38,884 nucleotides of DNA from a virus, in UHGV virus genome UHGV-0130462; one strand, written 5' to 3'. Made by a program: the position numbers and the translations under genes. Each line of letters starts with the position of its first letter. Within the stretch, counting starts at the first letter, position 1. The notes under the pieces are model-generated. The model saw nothing but the letters and a program-made list of their open reading frames with translations. It searched no databases and had not been told where the DNA came from. This document shows positions 3,993 through 4,419 of the stretch, piece by piece.

Positions 3993-4003
3993 CGCTTTAT
4001 CTC

Positions 4004-4293
4004 ATGTACACAATGAATATTTCGTTAATGTACTCAATATGTACAAAATGGCAAGCGAACTAAGACATAAAACATAAAAACACAAGAAAACATAAAAGAA
4101 CAAAAATGAACTAACAACTTGATTCATTCACCACAAAAACGGTACTATACAGACACTGAGAAACAGTTAAGCACCCTCTCGCAAGATGTTCCCTTAGTTA
4201 AATGGATATAATGAGTAAAATATATAACCTACTGTATTTACTACCATAAATAACAGGTGAGCATATCAAAAAGTACACTTTTATGTACACAAT
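4004..4293. repeat. three direct copies of ATGTACA(C/A)AAT (4004-4014, 4039-4049, 4283-4293); candidate integrase arm-type sites
   Basis: Read directly from the sequence; same orientation, flanking the middle of the putative attP. Confidence 0.5.
4065..4097. repeat. three ACATAAAA repeats in an A-tract-rich stretch; possible bending or accessory-factor sites
   Basis: acataaaacataaaaacacaagaaaacataaaag read directly from the sequence. Confidence 0.35.
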
Positions 4294-4419
4294 ATAAAAT
4301 GCAACCCTCAAAATTACTGTTTTTTACCCATCAATTCTCCCACCCTGCTATACTCTCCACTCAATTTAAGCCAACATATACTATGCATAGCATGTGTTGG
4401 CGTGTGAGTTTAATATAAA

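Follow-up and report, generated by a model that had tools for sequence, protein, structure and literature searches.

The short-tailed lambdoid Shiga toxin (Stx) phage Φ24B (vB_EcoP_24B) encodes an integrase (Int) and an excisionase (Xis) whose activities have been experimentally established (PMC3064807; PMC7581858). Its minimal phage attachment site (attP) spans 350–427 bp and the corresponding bacterial site (attB) 62–93 bp, recombination is independent of IHF, and a 24-bp crossover site has been published (PMC7581858). Two papers on this mechanism describe both the long, asymmetric attB and the 24-bp core without mentioning a tRNA (PMC3064807; PMC7581858). Here, we describe a site of this type in UHGV-0130462, a virus genome of 38,884 nt (this whole stretch is referred to as the window). 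It lies in the gap from 3993 to 4419, between the start codon of an integrase gene, int (ATG, minus strand, ending at 3992), and the stop codon of a Wzy_C-like gene (minus strand, 4420). An earlier reading of the sequence alone (the original prediction) had listed this gap as an attP candidate, and junctions in many Proteus genomes indeed break exactly there. We consider it very probable that the region from 3993 to ∼4333 is the attP of a Φ24B-type (P4-like) integrase, which would exchange strands in the D-arm of a tRNA gene, insert the phage on the 5′ side of that gene and supply the gene with a new 5′ end and promoter.

Several other systems can be compared with this locus. IntS-type integrases (KplE1/CPS-53, HK620) target the same tRNA gene, argW, and are likewise P4-type enzymes with an arm-binding domain, but they use the argW 3′ end; in Escherichia coli K-12, their int gene lies downstream of the tRNA gene and is read in the same direction, and it is the 3′ part that the element replaces. 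At a protein-coding target, Hochhut and Waldor are said to have found in 1999 that SXT/R391 inserts into the 5′ end of prfC, which gains a new promoter and 5′ sequence from the element. The window shares with it the integration at the 5′ end of a host gene, although SXT/R391 is a conjugative element with an integrase of an unrelated clade. The attP of phage lambda consists of a short core with the arm sites P1, P2 and P′1–P′3, and directionality is provided by Xis. As in lambda, the arm-type sites of the window are divided two to three between the arms, and the integrase has a separate arm-binding domain. This domain is, however, unrelated to that of lambda (Arm-DNA-bind_3 in the window), the target lies inside a tRNA gene, int is transcribed away from the core, from a promoter of its own within attP, and Φ24B, as a member of the family, needs no IHF (PMC7581858). 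In the Islander survey, finally, 159 of 3919 islands have a displaced 5′ fragment of the tRNA gene (PMC4383910, Table 1), and the crossover subsites are the anticodon loop, the T loop and the T/acceptor junction only (PMC4383910). The window resembles these 5′-fragment islands: in both, the 5′ part of the tRNA gene travels with the element, and a 5′ fragment is displaced. In the window, identity to the tRNA gene ends at position 24–28, which implies an exchange 5′ of the anticodon stem, in the D-arm region.

Prophage junctions locate attP and its core in the gap

The exact window Int protein is found at a prophage end in >20 Proteus contigs, and each of these prophage loci has a divergent tRNA-Arg(CCT) gene whose 5′ end is 196 bp away from the int start. 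The int-side junctions (L002–L011, L090–L095) match window positions 1–4215, beyond which come the tRNA body and a TauE gene. Far-side junctions (L012, L013, L017, L018, L022, L024, L028) were obtained from contigs retrieved via the Wzy-like protein and from IMG/VR contigs retrieved with the core sequence. They share the window from 15643 down to ∼4129, followed by a chromosomal mlaA–fadL–fadIJ flank, which shows synteny to the region upstream of E. coli argW. The empty site is present in two metagenome contigs (L031, L032), where the mlaA-side flank and the native promoter precede an intact gene for tRNA-Arg(CCU), the argW homologue. Direct repeats of the core delimit the prophages; the tRNA gene is intact on the int side, and a 5′ tRNA stub is present on the far side.

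The gap is a genuine attP: the location of the junctions, the identity and orientation of the tRNA gene and the extent of the attB identity can all be read directly from these contigs (Table 1). A search of host genomes for an att core had been suggested as a check; the junctions place the core inside the gap and not elsewhere. The original prediction had reasoned that P4-type integrases usually target tRNA 3′ ends and, as no T-arm/CCA-like segment was visible, that the core might be non-tRNA or too short to recognise. The absence of such a segment holds, since ARAGORN found no tRNA gene in the full window; the reason is that the part of the tRNA gene present in the phage is its 5′ end and not its 3′ end. 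The proposal of a non-tRNA or very short core does not hold, because the core is a 24-nt copy of tRNA-Arg(CCU) embedded in 87 bp of attB identity. Nor does the expectation of a tRNA 3′ end, as the tRNA identity stops at position 28 and attP contains no 3′ tRNA part. Instead of the classical 3′-end layout, we found int divergent from the tRNA gene and facing its 5′ end in all loci, and the 3′ two-thirds of the tRNA are chromosomal in the int-side junctions. A hidden 3′ tRNA fragment in the window was also considered and was rejected after alignment of the junctions.

The identity between attP and the Proteus mirabilis attB is interrupted by one mismatch (window 4212 is T, tRNA position 25 is C), and weaker homology reaches back to 4105. 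The outer limit of attP is set by two mosaic break points, 4333/4334 and 4359/4360. All Φ24B-type Proteus phages share the sequence to 4359 and then diverge, and in a sibling prophage that has a different integration module, 100% identity to the window runs from 15643 to 4333 and ends there. The conserved att module therefore measures ∼341–367 bp (3993–4333 or 3993–4359), which is compatible with the size of the Φ24B attP.

Table 1. Coordinates of the features in and around attP (window numbering)
Feature	Position	Strand	Description
attP, whole	3993..4333		P′ arm 3993–4187, core 4188–4211, P arm 4212 to ∼4333
Core, GTTCCCTTAGTTAAATGGATATAA	4188..4211	+	Perfect 24-nt copy of tRNA-Arg(CCU) positions 1–24 (5′ acceptor strand plus D-arm)
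attP/P. mirabilis attB identity block, 87 bp	4129..4215	+	tRNA promoter −10, leader of ∼40 nt, tRNA positions 1–28
Promoter-like element toward tRNA	4118..4148	+	−35 CTTGATT (4118–4124), 18-nt spacer, −10 TACTAT (4143–4148)
Arm-type site P′3, ATGTACACAAT	4004..4014	+	TGTACACA (4005–4013) nearly invariant in 20 P′ arms
Arm-type site P′2, ATGTACTCAAT	4028..4038	+	Overlaps pInt −10; TGTACTCAAT (4029–4038) nearly invariant
Arm-type site P′1, ATGTACAAAAT	4039..4049	+	In pInt spacer; conserved in family alignment
P-arm pair, AGTACAC (4271–4277) and ATGTACACAAT (4283–4293)	4271..4293	+	Conserved pair
int promoter (pInt)	4027..4054	−	−35 TTGCCA (4054..4049), 16-nt spacer, −10 TACATT (4032..4027), predicted start ∼4020
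Integrase gene, 391 aa	2817..3992	−	P4-type/Φ24B-type tyrosine recombinase (Pfam and homology)
Excisionase gene (Xis, recombination directionality factor), 63 aa	2648..2839	+	Convergent with int, overlaps int 3′ end
Wzy_C-like gene (O-antigen polymerase/ligase family)	4420–5643	−	Low GC (∼0.29), between tailspike gene and attP
Hairpin, 16-nt arms (GCCAACATATACTATG/CATAGCATGTGTTGGC)	4370–4401		Inverted repeat, 88% complementary, no loop spacer

The sibling prophage (Logan contig L014, 11205–11600) is 100.000% identical to window 15643–4333 and then joins sequence ∼190 bp upstream of glnS. We considered this joint as a secondary integration site and rejected it, as it lies at window position 4333 and not at the core. 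Other Proteus prophages with a lambda-type Int (Arm-DNA-bind_1) adjoin nagE, and L014 looks like a sibling phage whose whole integration module was swapped at the mosaic joint, which would fit a lambda-type nagE–glnS module. In another Proteus genome, the 391-aa Arm-DNA-bind_3 integrase of a related P22-like prophage (L076, 15020–16195) adjoins sbcB (exonuclease I). In E. coli, too, sbcB is an insertion site of Stx phages.

The D-arm as the most likely region of strand exchange

In Proteus, the exchange can be bracketed by two single-nucleotide polymorphisms (SNPs). At position 4151 (−37), the phage and the int-side junctions have A, and all far-side junctions and empty sites have G. At position 4212 (+25), on the other side, T is found in the phage and the far-side junctions and C in every int-side tRNA. 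This confines the Proteus exchange to 4152..4211. The E. coli members of the family narrow the interval. Just argW positions 1–24 are shared between the Φ24B attP and E. coli K-12, and each member of the family copies the acceptor-stem variant of its own host. Furthermore, argW position 5 is C in exactly 25–26 of 5426 complete E. coli genomes, namely those with an EcoS733R5-type arm beside the tRNA gene, and T elsewhere. Since the C5 allele tracks the prophage arm, position 5 of the functional tRNA is supplied by the phage; together with the shared positions 1–24, this would put the exchange in tRNA positions 6–24, which is essentially the D-arm (window 4193–4211). The stretch 4188–4211 is thus the common core of the whole family and the region where strands are most likely exchanged.

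If strands are exchanged there, the sequence upstream of the tRNA gene in a lysogen comes from the phage. We aligned the int-proximal (P′) arms of 20 family members from >10 genera, and CTTGAT (4118–4123) and G-TAnnAT (4141–4148) of the promoter-like element were conserved in 20 of 20, gap-free up to tRNA +1. In P. mirabilis, the CTTGATT/TACTAT element is also the chromosomal sequence upstream of the empty site, at the position of the native promoter. Its conservation extends to relatives even where the native host promoter differs, for example in E. coli K-12, whose argW promoter is unrelated to the Φ24B copy. We infer that the phage-borne element would drive transcription of tRNA-Arg(CCU) in lysogens.

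The argW promoter and leader of P. mirabilis (L031, 2268–2350; L032) are 88–100% identical to the phage copy (window 4105–4187) over 83 bp. Either the phage captured Proteus sequence or the chromosome acquired that of the phage. When the Proteus flank upstream of attB was examined as a possible decayed prophage arm, homology ended at about −83 and tblastn found no int remnant in it.

Two observations weigh against an exchange in the D-arm with a phage-supplied promoter. The tRNA-directed element matches the sigma-70 consensus at 8 of 12 positions, which is under the threshold of the scanner. Moreover, position 4185 (−3) is G in the window and in the far-side junctions of 99.9%-identical prophages, but A in both empty sites and in all int-side junctions (at least 19). 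Taken at face value, this SNP hints at an exchange in the leader, between 4152 and 4184. Such an exchange, which we regard as unlikely, would involve the same attP and Int; integration would then be intergenic, and the copy of tRNA positions 1–24 would be a core-binding or homology element absent from the expressed tRNA. At −37, −3 and +25, the window reads A,G,T and the empty sites read G,A,C, and near-identical prophages have A,A,C at their int-side and G,G,T at their far-side junctions. These are the alleles expected from a single exchange between −37 and −3, with one mutation needed. In addition, L017 has a host flank almost identical to that of L012 and L013, yet it carries A at −3 and another phage arm.

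The same pattern could, however, result from exchange mediated by RecA or Erf within the 87 bp of identity, from migration of the Holliday junction there, or from a k-mer assembly path switch in the 33-nt stretch common to both junctions. The int-side and far-side Proteus junctions that were compared also come from different genomes; the sole pair on the same contig (L022/L027), which is the only contig with both junctions in a P′-arm pattern scan of viral contigs, has no informative SNPs. Using a 313-aa window protein as query, we retrieved six more int-side junctions, all of them A,A,C; none belongs to the window phage itself, and all have a different ERF/SSB segment. A 106-aa window protein as query matched thousands of unrelated Proteus prophages. 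It is also possible that the −3 SNP reflects a real difference in the window phage. An exchange in the leader is further at odds with the E. coli phages: Φ24B and Stx2 phage 86 share no attB sequence with E. coli upstream of −1 or +1, so that in E. coli the exchange must take place inside tRNA positions 1–24. Likewise, the E. coli C5 allele follows the prophage, and copying of the host acceptor-stem variant would be needed only if the segment enters the functional tRNA.

Arm-type sites and the int promoter

A P4-type integrase had been named in the original prediction, and the protein indeed contains the Pfam domains Arm-DNA-bind_3 (1.5e-18; residues 3–84) and Phage_integrase (3.8e-17). The motifs GSR, HDFRR, LGH and AVY are present in its sequence. 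It is 76.3% identical to Φ24B Int over 389 aa (residues 1–389), and its identity to the integrases of many other Stx phages, for which the insertion site has been named argW, is likewise 76%. The window Xis is 49% identical to Φ24B Xis (E = 6e-23), the convergent, overlapping arrangement of the two genes is alike in both phages, and a 63-aa xis gene was called in every Proteus prophage locus examined.

Three ATGTACA(C/A)AAT and three ACATAAAA repeats had been noted in the 427-bp gap as possible arm-type repeats, and their coordinates confirm both sets. The three ATGTACA(C/A)AAT copies are P′3, P′1 and the second member of the P-arm pair (4004–4014, 4039–4049 and 4283–4293); P′2 is a copy with one mismatch (ATGTACTCAAT, 4028–4038), and the first member of the P-arm pair is a related half-site. 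Allowing for ≤1 mismatch, the motif has 4 matches in the whole 38.9-kb window, all in the gap and all on the plus strand. The ACATAAAA copies start at 4065, 4072 and 4090 and, together with an inverted copy at 4279–4286, make up 4 of the 6 in the window. Against 20,000 first-order Markov (Markov-1) sequences with the gap's own AT-rich composition, both sets are non-random: four TGTACN[AC]A on one strand occurred in 0 of 20,000 simulations (mean 0.21), and three ACATAAAA copies had P = 3.5e-4.

The family alignment separates the two sets. It shows sharply conserved blocks amid diverged sequence, one of which consists of TGTACnnAAT followed by GGCAAGTGAAC (window 4040–4060). In Proteus phages, Φ24B and Stx2 phage 86, the distal pair, AGTACnC-N6-ATGTACACA, is equally far from the core, within arms that are otherwise unrelated. 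Five arm-type sites hence flank the core, three int-proximal and two distal, all in one orientation and all distinct in sequence from the core. Their position and conservation suggest that the ATGTACA-type repeats are arm-type sites to which the integrase would bind. The assignment as arm-type repeats accordingly stands for this set, which is conserved and present on both sides of the core in one orientation, but not for ACATAAAA, which is not conserved in the family. For the same reason, we rejected the ACATAAAA repeats as Xis, IHF or Int sites. The stretch that contains the three copies (4065–4097) is A-rich, yet its sequence is not conserved among the 20 arms, and it is probably UP-like or bent DNA upstream of pInt rather than a conserved protein site. 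A UP half-site upstream of the Φ24B pInt has been proposed by its authors (PMC3064807).

The int promoter had been expected in the same region, and pInt was the sole promoter-like match of a promoter scan in the gap. Its −35 is part of the conserved block GGCAAG(C/T)GAAC (4050–4060). In Φ24B, where the int transcription start was mapped by rapid amplification of cDNA 5′ ends (5′-RACE) to about position 207 of HM208303 (PMC3064807), the counterpart TTGCTA-16-TACAGA is located 6–7 nt upstream of the mapped start. The expectation is thus borne out by sequence homology. The overlap of P′1 and P′2 with pInt suggests that Int probably represses its own synthesis. For IntS of KplE1, autoregulation and an int promoter overlapped by arm-type sites have likewise been reported (PMC2951348).

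This overlap could also be taken to mean that the ATGTACA-type repeats are operators or promoter elements of int, bound by a repressor or another regulator, and that they lie in attP incidentally. Indeed, pInt shares its −10 and spacer with three of the five copies. We nevertheless consider this very unlikely, as the other two copies are located beyond the core (∼90 bp past it and ∼260 bp from pInt), at the same distance in Φ24B and Stx2 phage 86. The integrase has an arm-DNA-binding domain, all copies share a single orientation, as expected of arm sites, and Φ24B requires an attP of 350–427 bp, that is, both arms (PMC7581858). That the repeats arose by chance in AT-rich intergenic DNA (gap GC ∼0.30), where short A/T-rich words recur readily, and that the true att core is located elsewhere, perhaps outside the window, deserves almost no credence, given that all matches in the window cluster in the gap, that the simulations never matched the observed count, that the sites are conserved across genera and that the prophage junctions, which already refute it, map the core inside the gap.

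The Φ24B/argW family

We reconstructed the layout of the Φ24B attP from the ends of its record. As in the window, int is divergent from the core at a distance of ∼195 bp, and the core corresponds to tRNA-Arg(CCU) positions 1–24 with T at +25. Three TGTAC sites and the −35/−10 of pInt are found beside int, CTTGATT/TAnnAT lies at the same distance, the distal arm has a paired GTAC site, and xis is convergent. The differences concern the phages themselves (a short-tailed lambdoid Stx phage versus a P22-like phage in Proteus), the acceptor-stem bases (GTCCTCT in Φ24B versus GTTCCCT in the window and the Proteus tRNA) and the attB identity, which comprises 24–25 bp in E. coli for Φ24B and 87 bp in Proteus (from the promoter −10 to +28).

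Homologues of Int with 62–93% identity were found in Providencia, Morganella, Xenorhabdus, Erwinia, Enterobacter, Salmonella, Brenneria, Rouxiella, Arsenophonus, Limnobaculum and P. penneri, in a scan of one genome per species. Each of them is divergent from a tRNA-Arg(CCU) gene whose 5′ end is ∼195 bp away, and the distance from int to the core is 196 bp in the window and 195–196 bp in its relatives. Among 5426 complete E. coli genomes, 209 (about 4%) have int and an arm of the Φ24B type at argW, and such genomes often contain two or three copies of the arm. By every feature that can be compared in sequence, the window attP is a member of the Φ24B-type integration module.

In E. coli O157 644-PT8 (L089, NZ_CP015831.1, 1559756–1562680), intS, the tRNA-Arg gene, a Φ24B-type int and xis follow each other in a row. 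IntS-type and Φ24B-type elements can therefore sit in tandem on a single tRNA gene, with intS on the 3′ side of argW and the Φ24B-type int on the 5′ side, so that two integrase clades share one gene. In a Proteus contig (L009, 1–9566), the tRNA-Arg gene is flanked by a P4-like satellite at its 3′ side and by a P22-like prophage at its 5′ side. Besides capsid-size and primase genes and a KwaA/KwaB (Kiwa defence) pair, the satellite encodes its own Arm-DNA-bind_3 integrase, which is 25% identical to the window Int.

Proposed mechanism and implications

With strand exchange in the D-arm, as we favour, integration could proceed as follows. The N-terminal arm-binding domain of Int would bind the five TGTACnCA-type sites, three int-proximal and two distal, and Int would synapse the core with the chromosomal tRNA gene, with strand exchange most likely within tRNA positions 6–24. 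The prophage would land on the 5′ side of the tRNA gene. The gene would keep its own body from about position 25 (the 3′ two-thirds) and receive its 5′ end, leader and promoter (CTTGATT/TACTAT, 4118–4148) from the phage, while the native promoter with a tRNA stub of 24–28 nt would be displaced by ∼39 kb to the far junction. Int would limit its own synthesis via P′1 and P′2 over pInt, and the convergent Xis would give directionality.

An unassigned gap can thus be described as a dissected attachment site, and the idea of a non-tRNA core is corrected. The comparison also ties the puzzling Φ24B integrase to a simple rule, namely that its 24-bp core is the 5′ end of argW, and this rule holds in at least 10 genera. 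It predicts that strands are exchanged in the D-arm and that, in lysogens, a phage-borne promoter transcribes argW. A subsite in the D-arm, together with a promoter supplied by the phage, would extend current knowledge modestly. The Φ24B system has already been studied experimentally, and 5′-fragment tRNA islands are known but rare. For genome annotation, prophage-boundary callers that expect 3′ tRNA fragments would miss elements on the 5′ side. Φ24B-type integrases are, in addition, under consideration as tools for genome engineering.

A wider interpretation seems to us evenly balanced. The D-arm may constitute a fourth tRNA-gene sublocation, absent from the published list and used with a mirror-image logic. 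Transcription of a host tRNA may depend on prophage DNA across the Enterobacterales, including ∼4% of complete E. coli genomes. The homology of the P. mirabilis argW promoter and leader may, in turn, record a past exchange between phage and host, and both sides of the gene may be open to occupation by two integrase clades.

The phage and the surroundings of attP

The window belongs to a temperate, P22-like phage of Proteus (P. mirabilis), whose genome it presents in circularly permuted form. A 772-aa protein encoded at 5719–8037 contains the P22 tailspike head-binding domain (Head_binding; Pfam), and window 2800–4359 is 97.7% identical to Proteus phage vB_PmiP_Brookers (Lederbergvirus). The order of tailspike gene, conversion gene, gap and int is that of the usual attP location in P22-like phages. 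At the right end of the window, 38237–38884 form a 648-bp segment in place of which all near-identical prophages (compared in L003/L090) carry another, 1037-bp ERF/SSB segment. This difference is a swap of the recombination module, and because of it the exact window phage is difficult to trace as a prophage.

The hairpin at 4370–4401, which has a perfect centre, is directly downstream of the Wzy_C-like gene and outside the conserved att module, which ends at 4359. It was not called in a terminator scan; we predict that it is probably the terminator of the Wzy_C-like gene on the minus strand. The site between the tailspike gene and attP is the classical position of lysogenic-conversion morons. 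In Brookers and other Proteus relatives, the cargo at this position differs from the Wzy_C-like gene.

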